This document shows, one piece after another, positions 25,902 through 55,330 of a stretch of 64,000 nt of DNA; the stretch's first letter is position 1, and each line of letters starts with the position of its first letter. The position numbers were made by a program, and so were the translations under genes. The notes beneath the pieces were generated by a model that ran no database searches, was not told the origin of the DNA, and saw only the letters and a list, made by a program, of their open reading frames with translations. Source of the DNA: Eledone cirrhosa (Eukaryota); contig OZ024757.1 of the NCBI GenBank assembly GCA_964016885.1, forward strand, positions 33,666,001 to 33,730,000. The letters are read 5' to 3'.

Positions 25902-26066
25902 GTGTAGTCATATTGATTTTTTGATGTGTACTGTTTGAGGCATTGTGTTGTTGCTGAAGACATACACACATACATATATACATACACACATACATAGATA
26001 TACACACATACATACATACAGACATACATACTTACATACACACTCACATACATACATATATATATT

Positions 26067-28515: not shown

Positions 28516-28736
28516 TTGTGACAAGCTGAAACTACTTGGCACCATGGTCAGGATTTTACTACTCTGCATTTCCCCATGCATTGAGTACTCCCATGATTAG
28601 TGGTCTCAACAGTCTTCGTACTGCAGGCTCTCTCTCTCCCTATATATATAAATATATATATATATTTATATTTAAACCCATGCTCAACACGGAAGATAGA
28701 TGTTAAACGATGATGATGATGATGATGATATATATA

Positions 28737-28940
28737 TATGAAAAGAATCAGGACCCCGACAGCTGAGCTCCAGCCATTTCAACAGCTAGATCCGAGTTCA
28801 GATCTAGCTGTCGAAACGGCCGGAGCTCAGCCATCGGGTCTTGATTCTTTTCATATTACCCACTCTACTACCCTGAGTATTGAGTACTCTGGTGCATTAT
28901 GGTCCACCTGGTATCTTATAATACTTTCTTTGTTATACAT
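28737..28940 (+). mobile_element. Fold-back insertion with 3' half of a hammerhead, family copy 1
   Basis: Palindrome 28737-28855 followed by the tail TTACCCACTCTACTACCCTGAGTATTGAGTA...GGTCCACCTGG shared with copies 2 and 3; TA-repeat flanks. Confidence 0.7.
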
Positions 28941-29030
28941 ATTCACGCACACATATATATGTGTATATATATACGGAAAAAATGAAACGAAATTTCATTT
29001 CCCACTCTTATATATATACATACTTATATG

Positions 29031-29086
<56 letters not shown>

Positions 29087-29648
29087 ATTGTTTCTAGTTT
29101 TGGCACAAGGCCAGCAATTACCCAGTACATTACTGGTACTTTATTTTATCGACCTCGTAAGAATGAAAGGCAAAGTTAACCTCAGCGGGATTTGAACTCA
29201 GATCGTAAAGGGACGTAACTGTGCTGGAAAGCATGTCTGACCCGCTACCGATACTGCCAATTCACCGCTTATATATTCACCATGTAACGGAATATTATGT
29301 GTGGTTGTAACGACTAGTGGATGGATGGATGTAACTGTCCGCCATTATAACCATTATATATATATATATAATGGTGATGGTGATGAAAATTATTATCATC
29401 ATCATTATCAACATCAATTGGTTCTACATCCTATTTTAGATTCTAATTACCACTGGGTAGGACAGAGGAAGGTTTACCAGTGTAATGAGGGTGTAGGAGG
29501 AGATGGGGGTGGAGGATGTTAATGATTTATTAAATTCTGTATTTTACACAACTGTACAATCTTTGCTATCATATAACCCACAGGAAATTAAAAAATTAAT
29601 TATATAATTATACAGACTCACACATATATATAGATATAGATATATAGG

Positions 29649-29693
<45 letters not shown>

Positions 29694-30035
29694 ATGTATG
29701 TATATATATATGTGTAAATGTATATATATGTACAAATATATATATGTGTATATATATATTTATGTGTATGAACGAGACATGGTCACCCGACCAATCTTGC
29801 CTCAAGTGGGACAATCCCTGTCTAACCCATGCTGGCTTGGAAGATGGACGTTCAACGATGATGATGATGTTTTATATATATATATATATATATAGTTAAA
29901 AGAATAGATATATATTCATGTATATGTATGTGTGTATGTATATATGTATGTATGTGTGTATGTATATATATATATGTGTATATATATATTTATGTATATA
30001 TATATATATATATACACACATACACACACACACAC

Positions 30036-30080
<45 letters not shown>

Positions 30081-30721
30081 CACATAAATATATATATACA
30101 TACACACGTGTGTGTGTGTGTGTGTTTGCAATATTCTAATTTGATTAATGTGGTGATTTAAAATTTGGTGAAATTTCAACTCTCATACTTTAGGTAAATG
30201 CTGTTTTTCAATCACATGCTTGTTAGTTCAATACCACTTCAAGTCTCCTTGAACAAGTGTCTTTTAACATTGTCTTCAGTTGGCTCATGAATTGTGAGTG
30301 AAATCTGGTAGACAGAAATTATATGGAAGCCCATTGGATAGATTTCACCGGTTTTAAGGCTGGTCGTTTTGAATTGTCTAATTTAACAACATCACTTGGT
30401 TGATGGATACTTGCAAGATAGTCTGGGGTCTGAGAATACACCTCTTTCATCTTCTCACCAGTCCCAGAGACCCTGAAGTGTTTTTAAGTATAGATCACTG
30501 TTTTTCGTCTAACCAGGCTATTTAGGGTTTTTGAGAATAAAATCCTTCTTCGTTCTCATCAGTCCCATAGGCCCTGAAGTGTTTTTGAGAACAAAACCCT
30601 TTTTCATACTCACCAATCTCAGAGTCCCTGAAGTGTTTTTGAGAATAAATCCTTTCTTTCTGTTAAGCAGTCCCAGCAGCTCATAAAAAGGATCATGCCT
30701 GTTGTCTTTCCTTTCAACTAG

Positions 30722-30758
<37 letters not shown>

Positions 30759-30762
<4 letters not shown>

Positions 30763-30893
30763 TAACAGATTAAAGTTTAAGCAAAGAATCACTGCTTCCA
30801 CCCTTAACGGGATGTTCTGAAACGTTCAGTTTCAGAACATCCCGTTAAGGGTGAAAGCAGCGATTCTTTGCTTAAACTTTAATCTGTTGTTTT
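30759..30893. mobile_element. Near-perfect palindrome (65-bp arms, 5-nt loop) abutting (TA)n; same family as 2277-2342
   Basis: AAAATAACAGATT...CTGAAAC gttca GTTTCAG...AATCTGTTGTTTT; the right arm matches 2278-2342. Confidence 0.7.
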
Positions 30894-31036
30894 CAAATTT
30901 GATTTAAAATTTTAGGCAGCATCTTCATTAGAAATATGGTAACAAAGGTGTTATAGGGTTTATATTTATCCAAAAATCTTCCATCATAATTTTATATAGA
31001 AACTTTTCTTAAGTTATGTTCCAAAAACCAGCTTAA

Positions 31037-31238
31037 CCTTTTAGCATTTAAACTAGCTGTATCCGGCCAGAATTCTCTCACCTCTTTCTGTTCAAACCGG
31101 CTGTAACTGGCCACTCAGATGTTACGGTATTATTCTCAAAATATATAATATCAAAATCTCATAGATTTGATATTATGTGAGATAATTATGTGAGGTAAAG
31201 CCTTTAATGAAAATACAAGTAATGTAAATGCGAAAGGG
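31037..31238. mobile_element. piggyBac-like MITE, same family, opposite orientation
   Basis: TTAA-CCTTTTAGCATTTA...TAAATGCGAAAGGG-TTAA. Confidence 0.8.
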
Positions 31239-31404
31239 TTAAAGTGTAACATTCAAACTTATTTTATTATATTAACAATTCTCATTATGTGTTCAGTAGT
31301 TGAGTTTGTTTAAAGCATAACACTCAAATAGAAGTGTGCCATGATAAGCAAAATATTGTAGGTAGGCTAACATTTATAAACACCTCATTTTGTATAATTT
31401 TTAC

Positions 31405-32805
31405 ATTTGGTTTAGAATAGGTACACTGTATCCCTGAGTGTATCTGGTTTAGAATAGGTATACCATATCCCTGTGTGTAGCTGGTTTAGAATAGGTACAC
31501 TGTATCCCAGTGTGTATCTGGTTTAGAATAGGTACACTGTATCCTTGTGTGTATCTGGTTTACAATAGGTACACTGTATCCCTGTGTATATCTGGTTTAC
31601 AATAGGTACTCTGTATCCCTGTGTATATCTGGTTTACAATAGGTACACTGTATCCCTGTCTGTATCTGGTTTACAATAGGTACACTGTATCCCTGTGTAT
31701 ATCTGGTTTACAATAGGTACTCTGTATCCCTGTGTATATCTGGTTTACAATAGGTACACTGTATCCCTGTGTATATCTGGTTTACAATAGGTACTCTGTA
31801 TCCCTGTGAGTATCTGGTTTAGAATAGGTACACTGTATCCTTACGTGTATCTGGTTTACAATAAGTACTCTGTATCCCTGTGTATATCTGGTTTACAATA
31901 GGTACACTGTATCCTTGTGTGTATCTGGTTTACAATAGGTACACTGTATCCCTGTGTGTATCTGGTTTACAATAGGTACACTGTATCCCTGTGTGTATCT
32001 GGTTTACAATAGGCACACTGTATCCTTGTGTGTATCTGGTTTACAATAGGTACACTGTATCCTTGTGTGTATCTGGTTTACAATAGGTACACTGTATCCT
32101 TGTGTGTATCTGGTTTACAATAGGTACACTGTATCCTTGTGTGTATCTGGTTTACAATAGGTACACTGTATCCTTACGTGTATCTGGTTTACAATAGGTA
32201 CACTGTATCCTTACGTGTATCTGGTTTACAATAGGTACACTGTATCCCAATGTGTATCTGGTATAGAATAGGTACACTGTATCCCTGTGTGTATCTGGTT
32301 TACAATAGGCACACTGTATCCTTGTGTGTATCTGGTTTACAATAGGTACACTGTATCCTTGTGTGTATCTGGTTTACAATAGGTACACTGTATCCTTGTG
32401 TGTATCTGGTTTACAATAGGTACACTGTATCCTTGTGTGTATCTGGTTTACAATAGGTACACTGTATCCTTACGTGTATCTGGTTTACAATAGGTACACT
32501 GTATCCTTACGTGTATCTGGTTTACAATAGGTACACTGTATCCCAATGTGTATCTGGTATACAATAGGTACACTGTATCCCTGTGTGTATCTGGTTTACA
32601 ATAGGTGTACTGTATCCCTGTGTGTATCTGGTTTACAATAGGTGTACTGTATCCCTGTGTGTATCTGGTTTACAATAGGTGCACTGTATCCCTGTGTGTA
32701 TCTGGTTTACAATAGGTACACTGTATCCCTGTATGTACCTGGTCTAGTATAGGTGCACTAACCCTGTATATATCTGGTCTCGTATAGGTATTCTGTATCC
32801 CTGCA
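31405..32805. repeat. 37-bp minisatellite, about 37 copies
   Basis: TATCTGGTTTACAATAGGTACACTGTATCCCTGTGTG. Confidence 0.97.
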
Positions 32806-35800
32806 TGTTGTAAGAAGGGACTAAAAAGGTTGGTGTCCGGAGGGGCATCCTCTTGAAAAACATTACCACCATCATCACCATCACCACTTCTCTCACTATT
32901 TCTTTTCCTCCTCTGCCTCCTGTAATCCATAACACATCACTGTGGTTCCATCTCAGCATTCCTCTAATTTGACCATATTCACTGAGGCACTTTGGTGTGT
33001 GTGTGACCACAGTGTATTGTATATATGCATGTGGCTACAGTGTAATGAGTATGTGCATGTGCTTGTGTATGTATGTGTGTCTATGACTGCAGTTTAATGT
33101 GTATATGCGTGTGACTACAGTCTAATGTGTGTATATATATGTGTGGGTGGTTAGATTGTAAAATCATGAATCTGATTCTTGGAGATGTGTTGTGACCTTG
33201 GGCAAGACAATTTATTTCACATTGCTCCAGTCTACTCAGCTCGTAAAAATAAGCCAACTCTTATGAATACTGGCTCATGCTGAATCTCCCTGAGAATTGC
33301 ATTAAGTATGCACATATCTGTGGAATGTTCACCCAATTGCACTTTAATTTAAAGGTCCAATCTCATCACACATTGTGGCAAGCTGAATCTCCCTGAGAAC
33401 TGTGCTAAGTTAAGGGTACATGTATCTGTGGAATGCTCAGCCACTTACATGTTAATCTAAAGGTTCAACCTTATCATGCACTGTGTCAGGCTGAATCTCC
33501 CTGAGAACTATGCTAAATTAAAGGTGCATATATCTATGGAATGCTCAACCACTTGCATATTAATTTAACAAACTGGGTGTTCCATTATTCGACCAACTGT
33601 GACTCTGGTTTCCAGAATTGACAAAGGTCCAACATATAACATAGTAAACAGTGTCTAATTAGAAGTAATGTAAATGCTAAAGGGTTAATAGTCCTTATAT
33701 TTCAGGTGAAAATTCTGTTTAGATTAAAAAATGGCAGCATAAAAACAACACAAGATATTCTACACCAGGTTATTTTCCTCAGTTCTTTTGAAGATATTTT
33801 ATCATTCCAACAACTTTTTCTTCTTCTCCCACTATTCGTTGGAGGGTCGTAGGGGGCAGAGTCCTCAAGTACTTCTTCCAGTGGGTCCTGTCAGAAGCAA
33901 CCATCTCCAATTGATCCAACTGAATCCTCAAACAAGACCAGCTGAGCTCATGGATGTTATCCAATCATTTTGCTCAGTATTTACCCCTGGATATTCTAAA
34001 CCAGAAACAGTTCTGTATGAGCAAGACATGGTCAGCTGATCTGACTTGTCTCACAATAGGACAACTTGTCTAATCCATGTTAGCATGGAAGAATGGGCAT
34101 TAAATGATGATGATGTATAGTAATGCATGGTATTAGTGCCAGATTCAAGAAACTATGTTTCATAGATAGTGTTGACAATGACATATTATTCATGATCATA
34201 AGTTGTATGTACATTCAATTTCTTATAATGAAGAACATGTCTTTATCAACAATAACTATGAAACTGTTAGTTTCTGGAGTGTGCAACAACTACCATGCAT
34301 TACAATATATAAACTTCCCCTATGTTTACTTATTAAGGACTCCTTTTCTCATCATATGAAATCACACTCAAGTAAATATATACATGTACATACACAGACC
34401 CATGCTAGCGTGGAAAATGGACGTTAAACGATGATGATGATGATGATGATGATACACACATATGTATATAATTGTTTCTACTTTTGGCACAAGGCCAGCA
34501 ATTACCCAGTGCATTACTGGTACTTTATTTTATCAACCCCATAAGGATGAAAGGCAAAGTTAACCTCAGCAGGATTTGAACTCAGTCCGTAAAGGGATGT
34601 AACTGTGCTGCAAAGCATGGCGTCGGACCCTCTACCGATACTGCCAATATAATGTTTAAAATGTTCTCAGTTATACAGGCATCCATATATAACAGCATAT
34701 TTATATGTGTAGTAGACATGTTGTCGTTGTTGTTTAAACCCAGGTAACGGGGGAGATGTTTTAACCCTTTTGTAACTGTATTTCTAATGAAATTCACTGT
34801 TTTAATTAAACTCAAATGTTGAAGGATTTACTAAAATTATTCATTATTTCATTTCTTAACATAGCAACTTAACATATGGTTCTTAGATAAAATTGAGTTG
34901 GAAGATTTTAATTTAAATAGGAATTCTTTAAAATGGGTGGTTTTGTTTCATTGAACCAGAGCCAGCTTTGTCGAGACTGGCATCAAAATTGTTAATGAAG
35001 AGTTTGGGGAGATTTACTAAAATTATTTATTATTTCATTACTAAGATATTAACGTCACATATGGTCCTTATATAAAATTATGTTGGAAGGTTCTAAATTT
35101 AAATAAGAATCTTTTAAAATGGGTGGCTTTGTTTAGTAGAACCAGTGTTGGTTTTGGCCAGGCTGTTATGAAAAAAGTTAAGAGATATATTTTAGTCACA
35201 AATAAATATGGCTCTGAAATGTAAAGTATTTTCAAAGCAGCAGCAACAGATGCAGCAGTCAACAGCAGCAGCAAACAGTGGCTGCTATACACTGATAAAA
35301 GATGAGAAACATTGTATCAAAGATACACACTCATGCTGACGTAATCACAAAATGTACAAAGTTTCTGCAAAAGATAGAATAACATAAAATACAGACACAT
35401 AAAACCCACAAGTTTAAAATGACAGTCACAGAATATAGTTATATAATCTATATAGACGTATATAGAGACAGTCACATTGTCAGACTCTGACAGTTACATA
35501 TAATGACAGGCAAAAGCCTCAGACAGTCAAAGACACAGACAGACACATACTCAGACACACAGACAGATACATACTCAGACACACAGACAGATACATACTC
35601 AGACTGCCACAGACTGACTGTCACACACTCAGAAGTCACATACACACAGTCATGCACACTCAGTCACATCACTGACAGACACATACTCAGACAGTCACAT
35701 ACACAGAGAGTCACATACTCAGACAGTCACATACACAGAGAGTCACATACTCAGACAGACACAAGCACGCAGACGCAAATTTAGTCACAGGCTGAAACAG

Positions 35801-36278
35801 CCACAGACACAAACATTCAGCTAATCACATACTGAGATACACAGAGGCTCAGACAATCACACTCAGACAGTGATACATTCAGAGAATAGTACACTCAGAC
35901 AGTGACCTGCACAGACAGTGTCACACTCAGACAATGACACTAAGACAGTGACATGCTCAGACAGTGTCATACTCAGACAGTGTCATACTCAGACAGTGAC
36001 CTGCTCAGACAGTGACATACGCAAACAGTGACCTACTCAGTGACATACGCAGACAGTGACCTACTCAGACAGTGACCTACTCAGACAGTGTCACACTCAG
36101 ACAATGACACGCTCAGACAATCATAGACTGAGATAATGACAACTCAGACAGTCATAAACTCAGACAGTTATAAACTCAGACTGAGACACTTCAAAGAAAT
36201 GTGGCAAAGACCACTGAAAAAAATAAAAACTGCTAAAAATCATGTAATTAGGTAAAACTGTGAAATTTTATAAAGAGA

Positions 36279-36341
<63 letters not shown>

Positions 36342-36549
36342 TGTTATTATAGTATATTATATATATATAGTGTGTGATATCAAAAAGTTATTTATATATT
36401 TTATAGTTTCAATATAATTAGACAAGGTATTGCAGTGGAAATAATAGATATATTGCATATATATATATATACACACATATATATATATATATATATATAT
36501 GCATACATACATATATATATATACACACACATATATATATATATATATG

Positions 36550-36615
<66 letters not shown>

Positions 36616-37051
36616 TATATATATAAACACACACACACAGATATGTCTTTTTTTGTACATTTGTTTTAAGTTTTTGAACTACTCTTGAAGAAGATTCATA
36701 AAAAATAGCTAGTTTATTATTTACACCCGTAGCAGCAGCAGCAGTAGTAGTTGTAGTAGAAATAGTAGTAGCAGCAATATTTGTTGTAGTAGTAGTGGTG
36801 GGGTGACAACTGTAGTAGTGGTTGTTTTTGTTCTTGTTGCTGGTGCTGTTGTAGTTGTATTATGTGTTGTTGTTGATGCTGTAGTAGTAGTAGTAGTAGG
36901 TGTTGTTGTAGTAGGTGCTGTTTTTTTAGTTGTAAGTGCAGTAGTAGTAGTAGTAGTATTACTAGTAGTAGTAGTAGTAGATGTAATAGGTGCTGTTATT
37001 GTTGTAGTAATTATCGTAGTAGTAGGTGCTGTTGTTTTAGTTGTGAGTGCT

Positions 37052-37089
<38 letters not shown>

Positions 37090-37783
37090 TGTTGTTGTAG
37101 TAGGTCTTGTTTCTGTAGTAGTTATTGTAGTAGTTGTTGTTGTTGTAGTAGGTCTTGTTTCTGTAGTAGTTATTGTAGTAGTAATAGTAGCAGCAGTAGT
37201 AGTCCTAGATGCAGTAGTAGTTGTAGGTGCTGTAGTAGTAGTAGTACTAAATGCCCAACAAGTAATAAAAAATGGACAGAATTTAGCCACAAAAGTTATT
37301 GTTTATTTTATTTTGTATATTTATTTAATTATTTTATTCATTTATCAATTTTTTTTTTTCAATTTTGACTTTTCTTTACTTTTTTATATAAAAAAAAACA
37401 AACAAAAATATCCCCACCCCCATGCCCTGCCCCCGCCATGTGTTTGGGGGTCATTAAGAATTGCTGTTAGTTCCACGGTTTCTCAGGAGACTTCCATATG
37501 TTGTTAGGGTTGTTGTTGTGGTTGTGGCAGTTGTGATGGTTGTTGTTGTTGTGATGGTTATGGTAGTTAAGGTTGTTGTTGTTCTTTTTTGGGGGGGAGG
37601 GGGGCTGTTGATGCTGTGGTTCTTGTTATTGTTGTTGTGTAGTTTTCGTTGTGGTTGTCGTGGTGTTTGTTGTTGTTGTTGTTGCTGTTATATTTATTTC
37701 ATATTTATTTCATCTTATATTATTTACATTATTATCATTATTATTATTAATGTTGGTTTCTCGTTTTATTTTTTTTTTAAATC

Positions 37784-38007
37784 TCAAACAACCGTTTCCA
37801 TCTCCGACATAATTTTACGTTTGAATAATTTTGACGATGTTGTAGGTTGTTGAAGCTGTGGTTTACTGTGGGTGTCTTTCTTCTGTCTCACGAGGACCCA
37901 GTTTCGTAAATAAGGGGTCGGTAGCAGTATTAACCCTGACAGGATCACAAAAGCACCGGAGGCATAAAAACTGTAGTCATAACTCCCATAAGTGTCACAC
38001 AAAAAAC
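37784..38007 (-). CDS. SLC16-family transporter, terminal coding exon (TM12 and C-tail)
   Basis: Acceptor TTCTTTCTATCTCTAG|GT at 38008/38007, phase-compatible with the upstream donor. Gives GPPLAG-FLCDTYGSYDYSFYASGAFVILSG...ETVV*, the typical SLC16 TM11-TM12 pattern. Spliced CDS is 2004 nt (667 aa plus stop). Confidence 0.93.
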
Positions 38008-38383
38008 CTAGAGATAGAAAGAATTTGAGAAAATTTAAGTTAGAAAAGAAGAAAAATCATACGCAAAAAAAATGATAATAATAATAATAATAATAATCAT
38101 ATAGAATTTGAAGTTTGAAAGCCATGACAATGGGAAATGGACGAAAAAGAAATCAGACAAAACAAGGTGTTATATATTTTACCTTAATTTATCTAAGTCC
38201 TGATATTTCAAGATTAAAATCTCTTCTTCAGAGGGAAATAGAAGGGGCTAGTCTGGGTTCGGTGAAACACATTATACCAGCAGCATAGTATAGCGTATTT
38301 TGCCGAACAGTAGACTAATCCCTTCTATTTCCCTCTGAAGATGGGATTTTATTTCAAAATATCAGGACAGATAAATAAATTAA

Positions 38384-38604
38384 CCTTTTAGCATTTACAT
38401 TGCTCTATATTTACTATAATATTTTCACAGTAAAGCCTTTATCTTACATAAATATCTCACATAATATTGAATCTACAAGATTTTGATGTTATTTATTTTG
38501 AGAACAATACCTTAACATCAGTATGAATGGCCAATTATGGCTGGTTTGAACAGAAAGAGGTGAGAGAATTCTGGCCAGATATGGCCAGTTTAAATGCTAA
38601 AGGG
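38384..38604. mobile_element. piggyBac-like MITE in the SLC16 intron
   Basis: TTAA-CCTTTTAGCATTTAC...TAAATGCTAAAGGG-TTAA; splits the right arm of a fold-back element. Confidence 0.85.
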
Positions 38605-38644
38605 TTAAGGTAAAACATAACATCTTGTTTCGTCTAATTTCTTT

Positions 38645-38867
38645 CATCATCATCATTTTACGTCTGCTTTTCCCTGCTTTCAAAGGTGGAACTGGTTCTC
38701 TTCAGCACAGCATCTCTCCATTTGTCACGGTCCTTCGTCATCTCCTCTGTGAGCTTCAGCGATCTGAGCTCAGCTCTCACCACCTCCGCCCATGTTTTTC
38801 GTTGTCTTCCTCTACTGCATCTTCTTTCCACTTGGATTACTTGGCACTTCTTCACCCAGCGGTGTTT
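38645..38867 (-). mobile_element. RTE-clade LINE 3' fragment (intronic)
   Basis: RWVKKCQ...RGRQRKTWAEVVR; same tail. Confidence 0.85.
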
Positions 38868-39249
38868 GTCCACTTCCCATTGTCATGGCTTTCAAATTTC
38901 AAATTCTATATACCGTACGCAATGCTTCAAATAAACTACAAATTCCTCCGATAACAATAATGGTTTCTTTATTCACCACAAAGGGTTTACATTAAGAAAA
39001 CATTAGGACAACACAGGACAAAAACATAGACTGTGTGTTGGTGTGTGTTGGTGTGTAGGTGGTGGTAACTGTGGTGTATTATTGGTGGTGGTGGTTTTGG
39101 CATAGAGGTGGTGGTGGTAACTGTGGTGGTATTGATAGTAGTAGTAGTGGTGGTGGCGGTAATTGTGGTGGTGGTGGTGGTAACTGTGTTGATATTGGTG
39201 TTGCTGTTGATTGCAAGATTAAGAATAAGAAAAGTTAGAAGTAACTCAC

Positions 39250-41029
39250 CAGCTAAAGGTGGCCCCAAAAGGTTTGCGATACCCTGGTAGAGAAGCATCA
39301 AACCATAAGCAGTGGTAAGGTTATCGAGTCCGAGGTACTCCACCAGTAGGATGGTGCACAGAGAGTTGTTGGCACTTGAAAAAAATCCAAACATTGCCGA
39401 CACGGCGCTTAGAGTTGCGTAGCTCAGACAGAGCGGCATGAAGATAATGGAGACGCCCGACAACATCGTAGAGACTGCGTATAAAAACGTCAATTGAGAC
39501 TGGACTCTGTCACCGGCAAATCCAAAAACAATTTGTCCAAAAGTGCTGACCAGTCCGAAAACTGAGATTAAATATGTAGCTTTGTATTGAGGAATTCCTT
39601 TCTTTACACTCTGGTCAACAATATAAATGTATGGAATATCACTCCAGAAGAAAAATATAAAGTTTGATATGACAAATAATATAAAGACGGGATGGGTTAG
39701 AATTGAGCGATTGACCATAGTCCTTAGCAATTTCTTCATATGTTTACTGATATTTTGGGATTTCAGGATCTCACACCAATCTAAAAAGTCGCTGCTGTTA
39801 TCCTGGTCATTAGCAGTTCCAACTAAATGAGAAATTTCTGGACAACTATTTGACTTCTGTTCAAGGGAAAGTTTGAGAAGGTTTCCCCGGTAAAAGATAT
39901 CCTTCCGGTGAACAATGTTTTGTTGGCTGCAGGCTGACGCCTTCCGTTTCGAGGTGGATGACGTCTTCTGTTGCCAGACATCTTTGTTTTTCTCTGGAAG
40001 AACATCCGACATGTAGTATAATCCGTTAACGATTCTGTTGGTCGAGAAAGTATCAGGAAATGATGTTGTTTGTTTAACATTAGGCTCTCCGAGTATCACC
40101 TGAACTTCACCTCCGTGGTTTGGGTTGTTGCGTAGCTTATGAAAGACTTCATGTGAAAGACTGGCCCTTTTCAATTGTATATACGTAGGTAACTGGACAA
40201 CAGAGTTTGAAACCGTAAGATTTGCAACATCTGAATCATGCGTTAATTGAGCATCATAACTCCGCGATGAAAAGCTCTCGTCTAACGTGGAATTCAACAA
40301 GGTGTTTCGTTTTGAGATCTTTGATAAGTTGTCTGTTGCTGATGTTTTGTCGTGGTCTTTCTTGCTGTTATATTTTAGGGGTCGCAGTAAGGCCCCACAC
40401 ACTATCACATTGGAAACGATGCCCCCCAGAACCAACATGGTGCCTCTCCAGCCATATATATCGATGAGATATTCAAGCAGAGGAGCAAAAACAGAGGTAC
40501 CGATTCCAGATCCACAGACCGACAACCCCGTCGCGAGGGCACGCTTTTTCTCAAAGTAAAACGACACACTGACAATGGAGGTTACATAACTGATAGACAT
40601 CCCAAAACCAGCGAGAAAACCAAACGTAAAACACAGCATTTCAATGGAATCCACAAATGCACTGATGATTATTCCTGTTGTGGATACAATCCCACCAAAA
40701 ATAGTCATCTTGCGACACCCAAACTTTGTGGTGAGGGCACCTGCCAGGGGCCCACAGATGAGTGAAACCCCGACAAAGACTGACCCCACCCATGAAGTTT
40801 TACTTTTGCTTTGACCAAACGTCTGCAGAAGCTCTGTGAAAAACACCCCAAATGAATAAGCACAGCCATCAGCGATAACATTCAGCAGAAAAGATGAGAA
40901 CAATACCATCCAACCCCATCCTCCATCTGGGGATTGTGTATAGATACTGTTCTCAGAATCAGTTGAATCACAGAAGCTATTTCTTAAAGGTTCATTATTA
41001 CCGTCTTTTGGTTCGTCACTGTCCGACAT
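39250..41029 (-). CDS. SLC16/monocarboxylate transporter family (MFS) protein, coding exon 1
   Basis: ATG at 41029 with an in-frame TAA 12 nt upstream. SLC16 TM1 signature PDGGWGWMV, loop motifs YFEKKRALATG and YGWRG, and a large central loop with RKDIFYRG. The exon ends at ...GPPLAG, donor G|GTGAGT at 39250/39249 (phase 1). Subfamily not assignable by eye. Confidence 0.95.
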
Positions 41030-41185
41030 AATAAGGAATTAGAACTAAAGAATTCTGCTAGATATATAGTGAAAATTGAAGACAAACATAACTTAGTCAT
41101 AGGTCTGTGTAAGTGGAGAATACTGTGAATTCTGTCAATGGATTTTTTACTGTTAGCCATACGAATCCAGCACAACAAAGTCAAC
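41030..41185 (-). other. 5' UTR portion of the first coding exon of the SLC16 gene
   Basis: Strong acceptor TTTTTTCTTTCTTGTTTTAG|GTT at 41186/41185, implying at least one non-coding exon further upstream. Confidence 0.7.
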
Positions 41186-45250: not shown

Positions 45251-45288
<38 letters not shown>

Positions 45289-45320
45289 CACCTATATACG
45301 CCATTATATATATATATATA

Positions 45321-45381
<61 letters not shown>

Positions 45382-45756
45382 CAGTGCATCTTCGCTTATC
45401 CGGATATCGCTTTTCCGAAATTCGATTTACCTGGCAGCTATTTCTATACTACTATTTATTCATTTTTAAAAAAGACTTTTTATGGTTTGACTCAATTCAG
45501 TTTTACCAAGTTTTTAGTTATTCTTATGTTTGTTTAATTAATTTTCTTATAAATTCTAGCTGTTCTTTTGTTATTCTAATAAACTTTCTTTACTTAGCAT
45601 TTGTCTTTTATTTTGACTAAAAGAAAACAAAATATTAGAAACCACGAGCATTATGTAACAATGGGATTTTTGAATTCACTTATCCGGATATTTCACTTAA
45701 CCGGATCTTTTTCTAACTGTTTGGTTTTGACCGTCCGGATAAGCGAAGGTTCACTG
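45382..45756. mobile_element. Tc1/mariner-pogo-type MITE
   Basis: TA-CAGTGCATCTTCGCTTATCCGGA...TCCGGATAAGCGAAGGTTCACTG-TA: about 23-bp TIRs and TA TSD. Confidence 0.85.
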
Positions 45757-45798
45757 TACATATATATATATATACACATATATATATACACCATTATA

Positions 45799-46012
45799 TA
45801 GGAACGAGTAGGACCCCGACGGCTGAGCTCAAGCCGTTTCAACGGCTAATTCTGGACTAAATTTAGTCCAGAATTAGCTGTCGAAACGGCTTGAGCTCAG
45901 CCATCGGGGTCCTACTCGTTCCTATTACCCACTCTACTACCCTAAGTATTGAGTATTTTGGTGCATTATGGTCCACCTGGTTCCTTACCACATTTCCTTT
46001 GTTACACCATTA
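45799..46012 (+). mobile_element. Fold-back insertion with 3' half of a hammerhead, family copy 2
   Basis: Palindrome 45799-45924 with essentially no loop. The left arm complement reads GAAA-CGGCT-TGAGCTC-AGCCG-TC-GGGGTCC. Same tail as copy 1. Confidence 0.7.
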
Positions 46013-46057
46013 TATATATATATACACACACACATATATACACCATTGATGTATATA

Positions 46058-46088
<31 letters not shown>

Positions 46089-46524
46089 CATCATCATCAT
46101 CGTTTAACGTCCATGTTCCACGCTTGCATGGGTTTGGACGGGAGTTTTCCCACTTGAGGCAAGAGTGGTTGTCTTGCTCGCATAGGACTGTCTGGCGGGT
46201 TTTCTACAGCTGGATGCCCTTCCTAACACCAACCACATTTACAGTGTATATATATATATAATTGTTTCTACATTAGGCACAAGGCCAGCAATTATACCAG
46301 TGTATTACTGGTATTTTATTTTATCGACCCCGTAAGGATGAAAGGCAAAGTTAACCTCGGCAGGATTTCAACTCAGAACGTATGACACCTTTACGAATGA
46401 GCTGATTCCCAGCCAACTTTTCAGGAAGCATGATGGAAGAAATTTTACTCAAACATTTGATTTTGATTTTAATTTTAAACCTTTCTTTACTCCTACCAAC
46501 TCTTTTTAATTAACTTTTTTCACT

Positions 46525-46568
46525 GAATTTGACAAGATGGATCCTAATACATCGAAACCGGTAACTTT
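46525..46568 (+). ncRNA. Degenerate minimal hammerhead-like motif
   Basis: GAATT-TTGACAA(overlapping T; CTGACGA-like)-GATG..CATC-GAAA-CCGG-TA-ACTTT: stem II GATG/CATC and palindromic stem III ACCGGT, but the core is mutated. Confidence 0.4.
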
Positions 46569-48267
46569 ATCATATACTTTATATACTTCATAAAAAAATG
46601 TTTAAAAAAGAATTGTCCCTCTCTTTTTTTAATAACATTATCTTTTTAATGACACTATCTTTTCAAAAATGTAACTTTGACGAATCAAAAAACAAAAACA
46701 GACCCTTAAATATATCTCCCGTGCTATTTCCAACTTTATCTTTTCTCTATATCCACTGTTTTGTATAGAACCTCACTTCCTTTTTCTAATATATATATAT
46801 ATATACACCATTTATACACCATTTATATATGCTACCATACTGCACTACACATCTCAACACACACACCACATCAGCATCACCGCAACACTCCCGCTACACA
46901 CCTCCCCACTACACATCACCCACCCCACCATCACACATCACCCACCCCACCACCACACAGCCACCCATGAAAGAACTGTGTCAGTATGTTAGTGGTGACT
47001 TGCAGGATTGAGTGAGGGGTAGAGCGGGGGGGGGGGGGGGGAGAAATGTGTGAAAATGAGAGGGAGAAAAATGTGTGTGTGTGTGAAGGTAGGTGTGTGT
47101 GTGTGAAGGTATGTGTGTGTTTGTGTGTTTGCCAAACTGACTGAATAGTTATACATATATATTTATGCGTATATATATATGTGTGTGTGTGTATGTATAT
47201 AGATGTATATATATGTATGTATATAAATATATATATATATATGCATATACACCTATATATATATACATATATACATATTTATATATATACATATATATAT
47301 TAAATTTATATATATATATAAGCATATATGTATGTGTGTGTCTGTGTGTATGTATATCTATCTATATATATATACACATATATATATATGTATGTGTATG
47401 TATATATATATCATCACCATCACCGTTTAACATCTATTTTCTTTCTTTGCATGCATTAGACAGACTGTCACGTACTAAGACCCTACTAGACAGAAGACTG
47501 TCATGCCTGCAGGCTGTTTTGGGCTCAGTTCTTACAGCTGGATGCCCTTCCTAATGTCAACCACATTGTAGCATGAACTGGGAGCATTTTGTTATGTCCC
47601 CAACACTACCTCCTTACTGGGTGGAATGGGTACTTTTTGTTGTGGCACCAGCATTGCCACCTTACAGGGTGGACTAGGGGCATTTTGTCATGACACCAGC
47701 AGTACCACTTCACTGGGTGGACTGGGTACTTTTTGTCATGACACCAGCACTACCACCTCACTGGGTGGACTAGGTGCATTTTGTCATGACACCAGCACTA
47801 CCACTTTACAATGGTGGACTAGGTGCATTTTGTCATGACACCAGCACTACCACTTTACAATGGTGGACTGGGTACTTTTTGTCATGACACCAGCACTACC
47901 ACCTCACTGGGTGGACTGGGTACTTTTTGACATGACACCAGCACTACCACCTCACTGGGTGGACTGGGTACTTTTTGTCATAGCACCATCCCTACCACCT
48001 TACATGGTGGATTGGGTACTTTTTGTTGTAGCACCAGTACTACCTCATTACAAAACTAGGGTGCTCAGTATGTCTTTGATCAGGAGGGAGTAAAAAACGA
48101 GAATGGTGTTGCTCCCTACACATACACACATGTATATCATGACTCATACACTATTCACTTCCCTGACATTTGTATATTATTCTATGTACTATACATGCAC
48201 CTTTGACGAGTTGTAGTGCACCTGAGCACTTTACATAATAATTTCATTATTATTATTATTATATGCT

Positions 48268-48462
48268 GCGGTGGATTGGCAGTATCGGTAGAGGGTCGGA
48301 CGGCATGCTTTGACGCATAGAGTTACGGCCCTTGCCATTCTGAGTTCAAATCCCGCCGAGGTTAACTTTGCCTTTCATCCTTACGGGGTCGATAAAATAA
48401 AGTACCAGTAATACACTGGGTAATTTGCTGGCCTTGTGCCAAAAGTAGAAACAATTATTATT
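48268..48462 (+). mobile_element. Second tRNA-derived SINE family (about 190 bp), representative copy
   Basis: B box GAGTTCAAATCC and core GCCTTTCATCCTTACGGGGTCGATAAAATAAAGTACCAG (recalled as Meta-domain-like, unverified). Other copies near 6598, 9840, 14757, 23836, 26950, 29088, 34470, 46262 and 51510. Confidence 0.85.
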
Positions 48463-48524
48463 ATATGCTGCACCTCAAAAGTCTGTGCCTCTCTGAAGCA
48501 TGTGCTTCTCTGAAATGTGTACCC

Positions 48525-49890
48525 TCCTAAGGTCTGTGTCTCCCTCTAAGGTCTGTGTCTCCCTCTAAGGGCTGTGTCTCTCTAAGGTTTGTGTCTCTCT
48601 AAAGTCTGTGTCTCTCTAAAGTCTGTGTCTCTCTAAGGTCTGTGTCTCCCTCTAAGGTCTGTGTCTCTCTAAGGTCTGTGTCTCTCTAAGGTCTGTCTCC
48701 CTCTAAGGTCTGTGTCTCTCTAAGGTCTGTGTCTCTCTAAAGTCTGTGTCTCTCTCTAAAGTCTGTGTCTCTCTAAGGTCTGTCTCCCTCTAAGGTCTGT
48801 GTCTCTCTAAGGTCTGTGTCTCTCTAAGGTCTGTGTCTCTCTAAGGTCTGTCTCCCTCTAAGGGCTGTGTCTCTCTCTAAGGTCTGTGTCTCTCTAAGGT
48901 CTGTGTCTCTCTAAGGTCTGTGTCTCTCTAAGGTCTGTGTCTCTCTAAGGTCTGTCTCCCTCTAAGGTCTGTGTCTCTCTAAGGTCTGTGTCTCTCTAAG
49001 GTCTGTGTCTCCCTCTAAGGTCTGTCTCCCTCTAAGGTCTGTCTCCCTCTAAGGTCTGTGTCTCTCTAAGGTCTGTGTCTCTCTAAAGTCTGTGTCTCTC
49101 TAAGGTCTGTGTCTCCCTCTAAGGTCTGTGTCTCTCTAAGGTCTGTGTCTCTCTAAGGTCTGTGTCTCTCTAAGGTCTGTGTCTCTCTAAGGTCTGTGTC
49201 TCCCTCTAAGGTCTGTGTCTCTCTAAGGTCTGTGTCTCTCTAAGGTCTGTGTCTCTCTAAGGTCTGTCTCCCTCTAAGGTCTGTGTCTCTCTAAGGTCTG
49301 TGTCTCTCTAAGGTCTGTGTCTCTCTAAGGTCTGTGTCTCTCTAAGGTCTGTGTCTCTCTAAGGTCTGTGTCTCTCTAAGGTCTGTGTCTCTCTAAGGTC
49401 TGTCTCCCTCTAAGGTCTGTCTCCCTCTAAGGTCTGTGTCTCTCTAAGGTCTGTCTCCCTCTAAGGGCTGTGTCTCCCTCTAAGGGCTGTGTCTCCCTCT
49501 AAGGGCTGTGTCTCCCTCTAAGGGTTGTCTCTCTCTCTAAGGTCTGTGTCTCCCTCTAAGGGCTGTGTCTCCCTCTAAGGGCTGTGTCTCTCTCTAAGGT
49601 CTGTGTCTCCCTCTAATGTCTGTTCCTCTCTAAGAGCTGTCTCCTTCTAAGGTCTCTCCCCTCTCTAAGCTCTGTGTCTCCCTCTAATGTCTGTTCCTCT
49701 CTAAGAGCTGTGTCTCCTAAGGTCTCTCCCCTCTCTAAGGTCTGTGTCTCTCTCTACTAGTGCCTGTCCCCTCTCTAAGGACTGTGTCTGTGTCTCCCTC
49801 TAATACCCTGTCCCCTCTCTAAGGTTTGTGTTTCTCTCTAATAATGCCTGTCCCCTCTCTAAAGTCTGTGCCCCTCTTCTTAATGTCTGC
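48525..49890. repeat. 17/19-bp minisatellite
   Basis: AAGGTCTGTGTCTCTCT. Confidence 0.97.
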
Positions 49891-51730
49891 TCCCTAAATA
49901 GCTGCCGAGTTGGCCTTAATGTTAGCATCAGCCCTGCTCTGATGTTAATGTGGCTTGTAACAACCTTGTGAAATATTGGGTTATATAAATATGAAAGGAA
50001 GCCTCTGATGGCAGACTAATTAAACACAGCACTAATATAAATAAATGCCAGTCATAAGACATGGGGAGATGGACTGAAGAGTTGAGGGGAGGGGGGGGGG
50101 GCATGTTGAGATGGAATGGAGAGGGAAGAGGTGCCAGTGGGGGACATGGTGAGATGGAATGGAGGAGGACATGGTAAATAATCCCATTGACAATCATCAT
50201 CACCATCATCATTAGCACCACTATCATCATGACAATCATCACCATCATCATCATTAGCACCATATCATCATCACCATCATCACCATCATCATAATTAGCA
50301 CCTTATCATCATCACCATCATCACCATCAACATCATCGTCAACATCACCACCATCAACATATCATCATCACCACCATCAACATATCATCATCACCACCAT
50401 CAACATATCATCATCATCATTATCATCATCATCATCATCATCACTAACATCATCATCATCGTTATCACCACTACTAACATCACCACCATTATCACCACCA
50501 CCACCATTATCACCACCACCACCATTATCACCACCACCATCATCACCACCACCATTATCACCACCACCACCATTATCACCACCACCACCATTATCACCAC
50601 CACCATTATCACCACCACCACCACCATCACCACCACCACCACCACCACCACCATCATCATCACCACCACCACCATCACCACCACCACCACCATCACCACC
50701 ACCACCACCACCATCATCATCACCACCACCACCATCATCACCACCACCACCACCATCATTATCATCACCACTAACATCATCATTACCTCCACTAGCATCA
50801 TCATCATCATCATCATCATCATCAACAGCATAATCCCCAATACAATAACCACCACCAGTATCATCATCATCACCACTACAAACACCACCAACGTTGGCAT
50901 CAGACCCTCTTCACACACACACACATACACATACACACAGACACACACACAGACACACACACAGACACATACACACACATACACACATACAGACACACAT
51001 ACACACACATACAGACACACACACACATACACATACAGACACACACACACAGACACATACATATACAGACACACACAGACACAGACACACACACATACAC
51101 ATACATACAGACACACACATACACACAGACAGTCACATACAGACACACAGTCACACACATACACACACAGACACACACACACACAGTCACACACATACAC
51201 ACAGACACACAGTCACACACACAGAGACACAGTCACACCCTCATACACACATGTAGAATTGCCTGAAGAAATTGATACATATGTTTGCAAGGACAGTTTG
51301 CTGAGGGGGGGGGGGGGGGCGATTATGTGATAAACCAAAGAAACTAATGTGACTGGGTGGGGTGGGGTGTGCTAGGAGCCACCCTAGGTGCAATGGTGGG
51401 GAGGAGGGTTTAGAGACAGCAGAAGTCGCATAACATTTGAGGTCAACGATTTCTATGGAATTGAAAAAGCTTTTTTTTTTCTAACGTAAGGAAATATAAG
51501 ACAAAATAATTGTTTCTACTTTAGGCACAAGGCCAGCAAATACCCAGTGCATTACTGGTACTTTATTTTATCGACCCCGTAAGGATGAAAGGCAAAGTTA
51601 ACCTCGGCGGGATTTGAACTCAGATCGTAAAGGGACGTAACTATGCTGGAAAGCATGGCGTCCGACCCTCTACTGATACTGCCAATCCACCGCCCTATAT
51701 AAGACAAAATAATAAGGATGCACAAGTGTA

Positions 51731-51779
<49 letters not shown>

Positions 51780-52322
51780 ATGTATATATGTGTGTGTGTG
51801 TATGTATATATGTGTGTGTGTGTATGTATATATGTGTGTGTGTGTATGTATATATGTGTGTGTGTATGTATATATATATGTGTGTATGTATATATATGTG
51901 TGTATGTATATATGTGTGTGTATGTATATATGTGTGTGTGTGTGTATGTGTGTATATGTGTGTGTATGTATATATATATGTCTGTGTGTGTGTATATGTG
52001 TGTGTATGTATATATATATGTCTGTGTGTGTGTATATATATATGTGTGTGTGTGTATGTATATATATCTGTTATACACAAGTCAGTTGATTACATATCAG
52101 CTAAGTCTTTAACTCATTGTTTATATTTATATATATATCATCATCATCAATTAACGTCCATCTTCCATACTAGCATGGGTTGGACAGGTCCTATTTTGAG
52201 GTAGTTGTGTCGGGTGACCATGTCTCGCTCAAATAGGGGTGTTTCTGGTTGGTTTTCTGGCTGCCCTTCCTAACGCCAACCATATTTACATATATATATA
52301 TTTATATATATATACATATATA

Positions 52323-52362
<40 letters not shown>

Positions 52363-53143
52363 AAGCGAAACCTACAGTCAGTAGGCACCTCTTAACCAAA
52401 ATACACCCCCATCCCACTAAACCTACCCCCACCGCCATCTACACCACCCCTTTCGATGTAAAGCTATGTTGGTACCACAACATCCAGTCCTAAATAAATG
52501 AGGTTGTGTAGGTGTCACGACAAAAAAAAAAAAAACACACACACACACAGTCCACGCTGTAATGTGGCTGTGTAGGTAACACGTTAAAAACCGCCCAGTC
52601 CACACTGTAAACGTGGTTGGTGTTAGGAAGGGCATCCAGCCGTAGAAAACCCGCCAGACAGTCCTGAGTAAGACAACCAATCTTGCCTCAAGTGGGACAA
52701 TTCCCGTCCAGACCCATGCTAGCGCGGTAAATGGACGTTAAACGATGATGATGATGATGATATATTTGGGTTTGTTGGTTCACCACTGGATAGAACTGGT
52801 CATTCTGTGTGGTCAGCCACGATGTAATGTTATGGAAAGCACTCAACGTAATGCAACTCACCCGTCTTCGTTTGTGTTGTTGGTGGTGCGAGTACGGAGT
52901 TAATTATTATAAAATAACAGGAGTCATGTTCTGGTCTAAATCCTTGATCATTTCAATGACCGTGTTCAGTATGAATCCAGTGACATCATCAGGTAATTCA
53001 AAATATAACGAAGGAATATATCATAAAAATCCTTGGTGTTTAAATCAGAGACAAGAGGACGGCCGGTATTTTAGCAGCTTGTAGCTGCATCGACCGCCCT
53101 CAAGTGCTCATAATTGGGTCAAGATATACATATATATATATAT

Positions 53144-53470
53144 AGGGCGCATGGCTTAGTGGTTAGAGCATTGGGCTTGCAATGGAAAGGTTGTGAGTTC
53201 AATTCTCAGACCGAGTGATGTGTTGTTTCCTTGAGCAAGACACTTTATTTCACATTGCTCCAGTTTACTCAGCTGTAGAAATGAGATGATAGGACTGGGG
53301 TCCCTATCATTCCACTGTAAAGTGGACATGTAGGTGCCACAGAAAGAAAACACCCAGCACTCACTGTAAATGAGGTTGGTGTTAGGAAGGGCATCCAGCT
53401 GTAGAAATCAAGCCAGAATCAGTTCCCGTCCCACCCTTGCAAGCAGGGAAAAGCGGACGTAAAATGATGA
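53144..53470 (+). mobile_element. tRNA-derived SINE, same family as 8054-8398
   Basis: GGGCGCATGGCTTAGTGGTTAGAGC...GAGTTCAATTC...GCAAGCAGGGAAAAGCGGACGTAAAATGATGA. Confidence 0.85.
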
Positions 53471-53473
53471 TAA

Positions 53474-53508
<35 letters not shown>

Positions 53509-53639
53509 TTTTATATATATGTATATAGTAATAAAACACTCACTGTTTGGTTTGGATTGGTTTTCGTTTCTGTATCTTTTATATCTCTATAGTTGATTTA
53601 TCTGGCAATCAATGTTTATCATTGATTGACTAAATATAT

Positions 53640-53692
<53 letters not shown>

Positions 53693-53789
53693 CAATATTA
53701 AATAAATGGAAACTATATTTATAAAACCATATTTATTTCATTATATATAACAATTTAAATATATATAACAATTTAAATATAACTTTCCA

Positions 53790-53790
53790 T

Positions 53791-53872
<82 letters not shown>

Positions 53873-53898
53873 ATATGTATTTATATATATATATATGT

Positions 53899-53939
<41 letters not shown>

Positions 53940-53956
53940 TTTATATATATATATGT

Positions 53957-54030
<74 letters not shown>

Positions 54031-54491
54031 TTATTTATATATATATGTATTTATTTATATATATATGTATTTATTTATATATATATGTATTTATTTATAT
54101 ATATATGTATTTATTTATATATATATGTATTTATTTATATATATATGTATTTATTTATATATATATGTATTTATTTATATATATATGTATTTATTTATAT
54201 ATATATGTATTTATTTATATATATATGTATTTATTTATATATATATGTATTTATTTATATATATATGTATTTATTTATATATATATGTATTTATTTATAT
54301 ATATATGTATTTATTTATATATATATGTATTTATTTATATATATATGTATTTATATATATATGTATTTATATATATATGTATTTATTTATATATATATGT
54401 ATTTATATATATATGTATTTATTTATATATATATGTATTTATATATATATGTATTTATATATATATGTATTTATTTATATATATATGTATT

Positions 54492-54535
<44 letters not shown>

Positions 54536-54708
54536 GTATTTATATATATATATATATATATATGTATTTATATGTATATATATATATGTATTTATATATA
54601 TATATATATATGTATTTATATATATATATATATATGTATTTATATATATATATATATATGTATTTATATATATATATATATATGTATTTATATATATATA
54701 TATATATG

Positions 54709-54753
<45 letters not shown>

Positions 54754-55183
54754 TTATTTATATATATATGTATTTATTTATATATATATGTATTTATTTA
54801 TATATATATATGTATTTATTTATATATATATATGTATTTATTTATATATATATATGTATTTATATGTATATATGTATTTATTTATATATATATATGTATT
54901 TATATGTATATATGTATTTATATGTATATATGTATTTATATGTATATATGTATTTATTTATATATATATATGTATTTATATGTATATATGTATTTATTTA
55001 TATATATATATGTATTTATATGTATATATATATGTATTTATATGTATATATATATGTATTTATATGTATATATATATATGTATTTATATGTATATATATA
55101 TGTATTTATATGTATATATACATATATATATGTATATATATATGTATATATATGTATATATATATGTGTATATATATATATAT
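53790..55183. repeat. TA-derived array including a perfect 20-bp unit
   Basis: ATATATGTATTTATTTATAT repeated from 54021 to about 54340. Confidence 0.95.
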
Positions 55184-55330
55184 AGGAAAATGTTAGACGC
55201 CGTCGAAACGGCTTGAGCTCTGCCGTTGGGGTCTAACATTTTACTATTACCTACTCTACTACACTAAGTATTGAGTACTTTGGTGTGTTATGGTCCATCC
55301 AGTTCCTTACCACACCTCCTTCGTTTTATA
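55183..55330 (+). mobile_element. Fold-back insertion with 3' half of a hammerhead, family copy 3 (short inverted arm)
   Basis: AAAATGTTAGAC...GTCTAACATTTT encloses GAAACGGCTTGAGCTCTGCCGTT; same tail; sits at the end of a long TA-rich array. Confidence 0.65.

Follow-up and report, generated by a model that had tools for sequence, protein, structure and literature searches.

Short head-to-head hairpins in TA repeats of Eledone cirrhosa as insertions of a Hydra-clade Penelope-like element with a variant hammerhead

The results of our analysis support the assignment of three hairpins in the analysed window (the whole 64,000-nt stretch of Eledone cirrhosa DNA) to a Hydra-clade Penelope-like element (PLE), of which they are short insertions. 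These hairpins probably arose by twin priming on sense RNA, each cDNA running off where the RNA begins, at a putative 5' end (+1) that was mapped from DNA. The layout itself, an inverted arm plus a tail within (TA)n, has already been published; three features appear to be new, namely, the variant hammerhead, the sharp edge of the arms at +1 and a weaker peak of arm stops at the predicted cleavage site.

All three copies proposed by the sequence-only reading proved to be real (Table 1). With copy 2 as a BLAST query against the window, the other two were found at E 4e-46 and 3e-34, and the remainder of the 64,000 nt contains no other piece of the element or of its ORF. As had been described, TA repeats lie on both sides of each copy, and an inverted arm is followed by GAAAC, stem III and GGG(G)UC, and then by a tail, for which ~85 nt had been claimed and ~80 nt was measured in each copy. 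The proposed stem III motif was correct in layout but not in exact sequence, the cleavage triplets of the direct arms being AUC, AUC and GUU; of its palindromic loop, GAGCUC is common to all three copies, but UGAGCUCA is present in copy 2 alone. CUGANGA is indeed absent from the copies, and the 5' core half is missing in all three. The outer arms, taken previously for copy-specific, are actually subfamily-specific: the same stretch (with at most one mismatch) recurs in 29/29, 23/29 and 18/29 top genome matches of copies 1, 2 and 3, respectively. The inverted arm of copy 3 is merely 17 nt long. Among the 150 Rfam matches listed of 239 for the window, all are microsatellite-driven miRNA matches.

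Table 1. Coordinates of the three short insertions and their parts in the window
Feature	Position	Strand	Remarks
Copy 1, whole short PLE insertion	28736..28936	+	Subfamily 1; in TA repeat
Copy 1, inverted arm	28736..28794	-	Without tail; outer end = site 1; locus L067
Copy 1, direct arm	28795..28856	+	First base exactly +1 (putative RNA start); carries hammerhead 3' half; GAAAC at 28813
Copy 1, tail	28857..28936	+	Start of element 5' UTR, site 1 to site 2
Copy 2, whole short PLE insertion	45798..46004	+	Subfamily 2
Copy 2, inverted arm	45798..45862	-	Without tail
Copy 2, direct arm	45861..45925	+	+1 = 45865; GAAAC at 45883; predicted cleavage site between 45905 and 45906
Copy 2, tail	45926..46004	+	
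Copy 3, whole short PLE insertion	55182..55326	+	Subfamily 3
Copy 3, inverted arm	55182..55198	-	17 nt; locus L097
Copy 3, direct arm	55199..55247	+	First base at +13
Copy 3, tail	55248..55326	+	

The identity of the element is indicated by its long copies, in which the same ends enclose an intact 719-aa ORF encoding a reverse transcriptase (RT) with a C-terminal GIY-YIG endonuclease. Thus, the microsatellite-targeting ribozyme retroelement postulated from the letters, together with its suspected linkage to an RT/GIY-YIG ORF, corresponds to a (TA)n-targeting, hammerhead-bearing PLE. For instance, locus L201 comprises an inverted pLTR with tail, a pLTR, a tail, the intact ORF (protein P0004) and a further pLTR. 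In P0004, the RT motif YRDD (residue 348) precedes VIY (591), YIG (606) and R (617), which is the arrangement of the Hydra clade, and Hydra motifs are present as DKT (117), the CxCX5C linker (C572-C580) and the CxxC and CxH pairs flanking the conserved E and N, which read CNLCSE (670) and LNK...CKH (688). At the RWK position, P0004 reads RWR (residue 37), while among 109 aligned proteins RWK was found in 74 and RW[KR] in 104. The Naiad/Chlamys assignment was rejected, as it would need an N-terminal GIY-YIG. Searches of Pfam and PDB sequences with the ORF protein gave no significant match; its AlphaFold model (pLDDT 93) had TERT (3du5, E 2e-8) as the best match in a fold search, and single-sequence folding (pLDDT 32) was not usable. 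The genomic layout is also that of PLEs, with pLTRs in partial tandem, an inverted 5'-truncated copy and a tail at one end. The tandem period of ~3.53-3.54 kb equals the unit length, and its surplus over 3 kb is 3' UTR. One 30-mer from the end sequence of the element occurs 22,101 times in the genome, and a TA-type repeat follows 151/171 tailed ends and 137/144 untailed ends.

The sequence-only reading had expected CUGANGA in longer copies and had named its absence there as evidence against a ribozyme element. Taken literally, that expectation failed, as the 6,943 pattern matches comprise 12 with CUGANGA, 1,592 with a C3·A8 core and 5,339 with U3-R8 (A8 in 98 of the first 100 U3-R8 matches listed). 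The reading nevertheless stands because long copies contain a full predicted hammerhead in which a compensatory U3-A8 core is combined with a covarying stem II; in other long copies, the core is C3·A8. When 18 hand-picked long copies were set on a type I hammerhead, 88.8% of cells were paired and seven pairs had changed on both sides, four of them in stem II; the core pair was UA in 10, CG in five, UG in two and another in one. The three stems around a core, together with this covariation, point to a type I hammerhead topology, the core halves being ~56 nt apart in this family. We also rejected a register of the core that lacks N7, because the sequence in subfamily 1 is UUGAUAA and position 7 takes all four bases, while position 8 stays A in 76/83. 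An Rfam search with a full hammerhead gave no match. For a full hammerhead, the folding energy was no better than that of shuffled sequences (z +0.41), yet its predicted fold has the hammerhead topology; two of four others folded differently. A U3-A8 core variant has already been reported in Schistosoma PLEs (PMC4209133).

The outer ends of the hairpins are fixed at two positions 80 nt apart, site 1 (CCTAT|) and site 2 (GTTAT|). The claim that the inverted arm always starts at about the same point was borne out, as 57 of 77 automatically called arms from 90 loci start exactly at CCTAT|, six of the 77 calls being neighbouring or tailed arms. The tail is present on exactly one arm in 106/108 short hairpins, most of which were picked by their tail; the two with two tails count against the favoured model. 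In long loci picked without regard to the tail, it was found at one outer end in 16/16, on the shorter arm in nine and on the longer in seven, and therefore each arm appears to have been primed on its own. Long arms make up 7/70 tailed arms; the arm-length table, noisy near the variable signature, was used for this count alone.

In the short copies, the arms stop at a sharp inner edge (+1) located within the stem II loop of the hammerhead. Among 116 arm stops (70 loci, in genome order), 60 are at -3..+2, 45 at +3..+16 and a single one at -4..-29, and 10 arms are long. Subfamily 1 has another loop, and yet its edge falls on the homologous AGT. We rejected a splice acceptor as the cause of the edge, since the AG itself falls within the peak and no constant exon adjoins it upstream. 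A G not supplied by the other arm precedes +1 in 23/43 cases vs. 18/55 at other stops (Fisher p 0.04), after 23/66 stops at +1 had been set aside because the G could come from the other arm. By a hand count in 100 listed matches, with a few loci overlapping the first test, it was found in 24/38 (p 2e-4 vs. 1/3), and in the other 62/100 the other arm was a possible source. The excess of G is moderate, many junction Gs being attributable to the other arm. According to the available text of PMC9341517, an extra, cap-derived untemplated G is found at the RNA 5' end in L1, and a sharp edge with an untemplated G is what a capped RNA start would give. Of 30 loci in which the tail runs into the body, five also start at -2..+7; 16 have a longer 5' pLTR, which counts against the favoured model and would need read-through RNA or template jumps. 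In contigs of four sequencing runs, the summed depth shows a tenfold step at +1, and loose TA ends are seen at sites 1 and 2. We do not count these contigs as support because the depth is not copy number and run X1 is possibly the source sample.

The weaker peak of stops is at +42, the predicted cleavage site. At locus L320, both arms end there; the other arm of L326, L331 and L332 extends as far as +2, and strict counting leaves 10/67 (corrected p 0.07), both of which speak against this peak. Arms ending at +42 would bear on hammerhead self-cleavage indirectly, and a minority of arms may have been copied from RNA that the hammerhead had cleaved beforehand at +41/+42.

In the model that we favour, a TA repeat would be nicked on both strands by the RT/GIY-YIG protein, which would prime two cDNAs close to where the capped RNA of the element begins; transcription of this RNA would start at +1. 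Site 1 would be primed by one target strand and site 2 by the other, perhaps aided by the UAU that ends both sites. Both cDNAs would then run off at the cap, with a C added that is read as G, or be slightly trimmed, and would be joined head to head. RNA starting at +1 would lack the 5' half of the ribozyme, hence short copies with the 3' half only; the same two sites at the RNA 3' end would yield long copies. The available text of PMC11167929 (Frangieh et al. 2024) describes, for PAc, a Poseidon element of Anolis, in vitro internal priming at two sites that likewise bound the tail, with both strands of an AT-rich target cut and extended, and hammerhead cleavage not required for insertion in vitro. 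The start sites of PAc are also reported there as non-homologous to the target, and the TAT with which both sites end here is in this respect a point against the favoured model; PAc belongs to a different clade, and the same text does not describe a mass of run-off hairpins.

An unlikely alternative keeps the same PLE and twin priming but explains the edge by stem II itself, where the RT would stall on structure or junctions would form preferentially at microhomology. The edge does sit in a structured region, 39/109 junctions overlap by 1-7 nt, and the cap model does not account for another hot spot, at +7; however, arms end upstream of the paired 3' arm in stem II rather than at its base, the edge is as one-sided as the single arm in -4..-29 indicates and is common to subfamilies with different loops, and untemplated G is in excess at it. 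It is less probable still that the inverted arm arises by fold-back or self-priming, with the cDNA itself or an antisense molecule as template, as proposed in PMC3846280. In its favour, the junction is at times a perfect palindrome, the two arms stop together at -2 in 7/109 pairs (Fisher p 4e-7), and both arms come from the same source, since the 10-nt subfamily signature is common to them in 50/67 pairs vs. 23% between copies. The common source of the arms speaks for the favoured model as well. On the other hand, the stops are at least 3 nt apart in 55/109 pairs, the untailed arm often has sequence absent from the tailed one and can be kilobases longer, and the cap-like G argues for a sense template.

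We give little credence to an origin of the short copies from a non-autonomous RNA of their own (~140 nt, spanning +1 to site 2, and similar to that of a SINE or retrozyme), transcribed from solo pLTRs and mobilised in trans. The excess of short copies over long ones speaks for it, as do the very abundant tailed pLTR ends, transcription of which from +1 would give such RNAs; the short copies, however, track the subfamilies of ORF-bearing copies and are not arranged in tandem arrays. The sole difference from the favoured model is which RNA serves as the template. Non-LTR retrozymes (10.64898/2026.07.22.740005) are likewise non-coding, hammerhead-related derivatives of PLE pLTRs, but they form head-to-tail arrays with a complete hammerhead in each unit; the family does not match them, as the hairpins in the window, like most of the short copies sampled, are solitary, joined head to head and each carry half a ribozyme. 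Short inverted repeats within TA flanks might also suggest a DNA transposon (a MITE or foldback element) or gene conversion that made the arms alike at a later stage, and to this we attach hardly any weight. A MITE would have a fixed length, fixed TIRs and no RT link; this reading fails because the inner ends vary and the arms can reach kilobases and be unequal, and the one-sided tail and the RT/GIY-YIG linkage, which in itself refutes it, are also against it. Variants confined to one arm outnumber those in both by 96 to 4, which argues against gene conversion. Thus, of the two origins proposed earlier for the hairpin, formation during insertion is retained and later homogenisation is unsupported.

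The element shares with Hydra-clade PLEs (Craig et al. 2021, PMC8557442), including Hydra-1_Obim, the single ORF for RT with C-terminal GIY-YIG, the DKT, CxCX5C, CxxC and CxH motifs, (TA)n targets, the pLTR hammerhead, the inverted 5'-truncated copy, the partial tandems and the tail. It differs in the unit of ~3.54 kb (generally, though not strictly, <3 kb in that clade), in RWR instead of RWK, in the tail of 80 nt vs. 30-40 and in the mostly U3-A8 or C3·A8 hammerhead with its widely spaced core halves, the listed Hydra hammerheads being canonical and compact. The hammerhead and protein sequences of Hydra-1_Obim differ in a by-eye comparison with the published alignment, and therefore, as judged by eye, the element described here represents another family. 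Schistosoma Cercyon PLEs (PMC4209133; PMC3088659) have the same U3-A8 covariation, G10.1-C11.1 pair, palindromic loop 3 and type I topology; here, stem III has the full 5 bp, the long insert present in stem II appears to include the RNA start, and the unpaired C3·A8 matches are an additional difference. L1 likewise uses two primers from one target site. Its twin priming gives two segments without overlap, the second site being variable, unlike here, where one and the same stretch is copied into both arms, starting from two fixed sites.

The family is of practical importance, as searches for CUGANGA miss nearly all of its ribozymes and such short copies can be mis-filed as MITEs. Two differing accounts exist of the head-to-head inverted ends and tail of PLEs, the proposed self-priming on an antisense template (PMC3846280) and, in the available text of PMC11167929, internal priming in vitro, and the in vivo role of the PLE hammerhead has been given as unknown (PMC8557442). 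Because a single genome offers upwards of 22,000 natural products of the family, along with intact ORFs and ribozyme cores in three states, it becomes possible to test at base level which strand is the template, where priming occurs, where the RNA starts and whether the ribozyme is active. We tentatively suggest, as a possible though doubtful extension, that the RNA starts within its own hammerhead loop, so that the unit-length transcript would open with the ribozyme 3' half, and that the hairpins would record both the capped 5' end of the RNA (+1) and the 5' end left by cleavage (+42); such a split, switchable ribozyme would cut only once its halves reunite by read-through or end-to-end pairing. 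If true, the hairpins would settle PLE inversions as twin priming on sense RNA, and tens of thousands of them in the genome would be a fossil record of both RNA 5' ends.

The three fold-back copies that the sequence-only reading had placed in TA repeats, each with the 3' half of a hammerhead, were all found, and they are short hairpin insertions of one Hydra-clade Penelope-like element (PLE), each representing a different subfamily. No further pieces of this element were found in the 64-kb window. The supposition of a single exact motif was not borne out, as the triplet in the direct arms reads AUC, AUC and GUU in copies 1, 2 and 3, and of the loop only GAGCUC is common. When each copy was used as a query against the 3.0-Gb genome (30 loci returned per query), the stretches regarded as copy-specific recurred in 29/29, 23/29 and 18/29 other loci; the arms are marks of subfamily. 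A 30-mer across the boundary of arm and tail has 22,101 genomic occurrences (control, 0). Copies are often clustered in the same TA tract, several per few hundred bases (L020, L022, L030, L015 and L320). Among the other features of the window, the large transporter exon is, judging by eye, presumably monocarboxylate-transporter-like, and the 49-mer minisatellite unit contains CTGATGA.

Features of the window (G000:C18:33666001-33730000) and of related loci elsewhere in the genome
Feature	Position	Strand	Remarks
PLE copy 1	28736-28936		inverted arm, hammerhead 3' half, 80-nt tail, TA flanks
PLE copy 2	45798-46004		inverted arm, hammerhead 3' half, 80-nt tail, TA flanks
PLE copy 3	55182-55326		inverted arm, hammerhead 3' half, 80-nt tail, TA flanks
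Host exon, major facilitator transporter	38987-41038	minus	Pfam MFS_1, E 6e-44
LINE-like ORF C-terminal fragments	7578-8039, 9208-9705, 25958-26530		by eye
Minisatellite array	414-1016		period 49
Minisatellite array	11446-12143		period 90
Minisatellite array	16592-17305		period 73
Minisatellite array	31408-32803		period 37
Head-to-tail PLE arrays	G000:C1:91476608-91487254, C1:437200356-437210968		at least 4 units
Nested divergent Hydra-like ORF	L190:1994-3349	minus	within a copy of this family

The upstream walk, through 30 longer copies first and ORF-bearing copies next, led to a complete element (L201). It consists of an inverted pLTR with tail, a direct pLTR, the tail, which is continuous with the 5' UTR and hence forms its beginning, the intact ORF of 719 aa and a 3' pLTR. 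The expected linkage to an RT/GIY-YIG ORF is thus present in long copies, and the ORF motifs (DKT, YRDD, CxCX5C, VIY/YIG, CxxC and CxH) match the Hydra-clade marks as defined in PMC8557442. The ORF has at least 2,054 relatives, with identity mostly of 38-43% among the matches listed, and its structure model (109 sequences; pLDDT 93) has TERT as the top fold match. The published Hydra-1_Obim is, judged by eye, another family. The head-to-tail arrays, with a period of ~3.54 kb, are possible source loci. One copy of the family harbors a second, divergent Hydra-like ORF.

Long copies contain a full hammerhead, with stem I (ACCCC/GGGGU, the predicted GACCCC-like arm upstream of GAAA), a 7-nt core, a stem-loop II of ~56 nt, GAAAC, stem III with the GAGCUC palindrome, and GUC. 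The anticipated canonical CUGANGA core is not the prevailing one: exact patterns, with the two arms of one insertion scored separately, gave 12 matches for C3-G8 vs. 1,592 for C3·A8 and 5,339 for U3-R8 (controls, 0). A8 is present in 98/100 of the first listed U3 matches; in subfamily 1, U3 occurs in 83/83 and A8 in 76 (hand count). Since four diverged relatives (L149, L151, L155 and L157, also with a shorter stem II insert) keep CUGAUGA, this core may be ancestral. U3-A8 is a known active hammerhead covariation (PMC4209133, PMC3088659). The C3·A8 core would probably be impaired, by analogy with the G8 and C3 mutants in PMC11167929. Copies with C3·A8 are nevertheless near-identical among themselves, which fits dispensable cleavage. 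Seven pairs, four of them in stem II, changed on both sides in 18 hand-picked long copies and the window copies, counts that are inflated by kinship among copies. The lack of an Rfam match for the hammerhead and its unremarkable folding energy count against a ribozyme.

The outer ends of the insertions are fixed. Untailed ends terminate at site 1 (CCTAT|), with a TA run at offset 12 or 14 in 114/144, and tailed ends at site 2 (GTTAT|), followed by a TA-type repeat in 151/171. A single arm carries the tail in 106/108 short hairpins, mostly selected by tail, and in 16/16 long loci selected without it (shorter arm, 9; longer arm, 7). Homogenisation of the arms after insertion, one of two alternatives proposed earlier, is not supported: variants occur 96 times on one arm and 4 times on both. 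These numbers, together with subfamily signatures common to both arms in 50/67 ungapped pairs vs. 23% between copies (42/109 pairs being left out for indels or divergence), indicate arms of one source at insertion, followed by separate decay.

The inner ends share an edge as well. Among 116 arms reaching GTCGAAAC, from 70 loci taken in order along contig C1, 60 stop at -3..+2, 45 at +3..+16 and 1 at -4..-29, and 10 are long; the peak at +1 also appears in 185 arms from 90 query loci of all three subfamilies. Position +1, the putative RNA start, is the A of an AGT within the stem II loop, in a TYAGTY context that resembles an Initiator motif. Thirty tail-into-body loci start at -2..+7 in 5 cases and +13..+16 in 3; in another 16 the pLTR is longer, and the other 6 are broken in other ways. 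The next base not supplied by the other arm is G in 23/43 vs. 18/55 at other stops (p 0.04) and, among 100 further listed matches, in 24/38, with 62 set aside (hand count). Untemplated G is a known mark of cap copying (PMC9341517), and a cap may be its origin here. Stops at -1..-3 may represent untemplated A tails matching a template T run, with L216 and L249 as examples. In these two loci the +1 junction contains long A/T stretches without a template, which suggest a reverse transcriptase with terminal transferase activity, and arms in which the stem III hairpin is skipped via short repeats (L092, L096, L106 and L126) suggest that it jumps across RNA structure. Blunt joins of a +1 arm end to a +7 arm end are frequent, and copying of a cap does not explain them.

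A further stop coincides with the predicted cleavage site. Among 100 listed arms, a set enriched in short truncations, 33 were excluded for a shift or rearrangement. Of the 67 truncated arms, 13 start at +42, the base directly following GUC (hand count; corrected p 0.001), or 10/67 by the strict count (p 0.07); both arms of L320 end there. While cleavage is one reading of this peak, it could also arise by stalling at stem III or by joining at G runs, and the partner arm extending to +2 in L326, L331 and L332 argues against cleavage.

In the most likely mechanism, each strand of (TA)n is nicked by the protein, which then starts cDNA synthesis at sites 1 and 2 of the sense RNA. Near the RNA 5' end, such priming would give two short cDNAs that run off the template and are joined head to head, carrying half of the ribozyme only; near the 3' end, it would give long copies. 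The sequence data establish the family, the ends, their asymmetry and the inner edge; the start of the RNA, a cap as the source of the G, the priming chemistry and an active ribozyme are inferred. Published work already covers the inverted pLTR, the tail, TA targeting, the Hydra clade and the U3-A8 variant; the openly accessible literature that was searched yielded neither this family nor run-off hairpins as markers of a PLE start site. The element belongs to a known kind, of known anatomy, within which it is a new family and a structural variant, and its value is the mechanistic record preserved in its copies.
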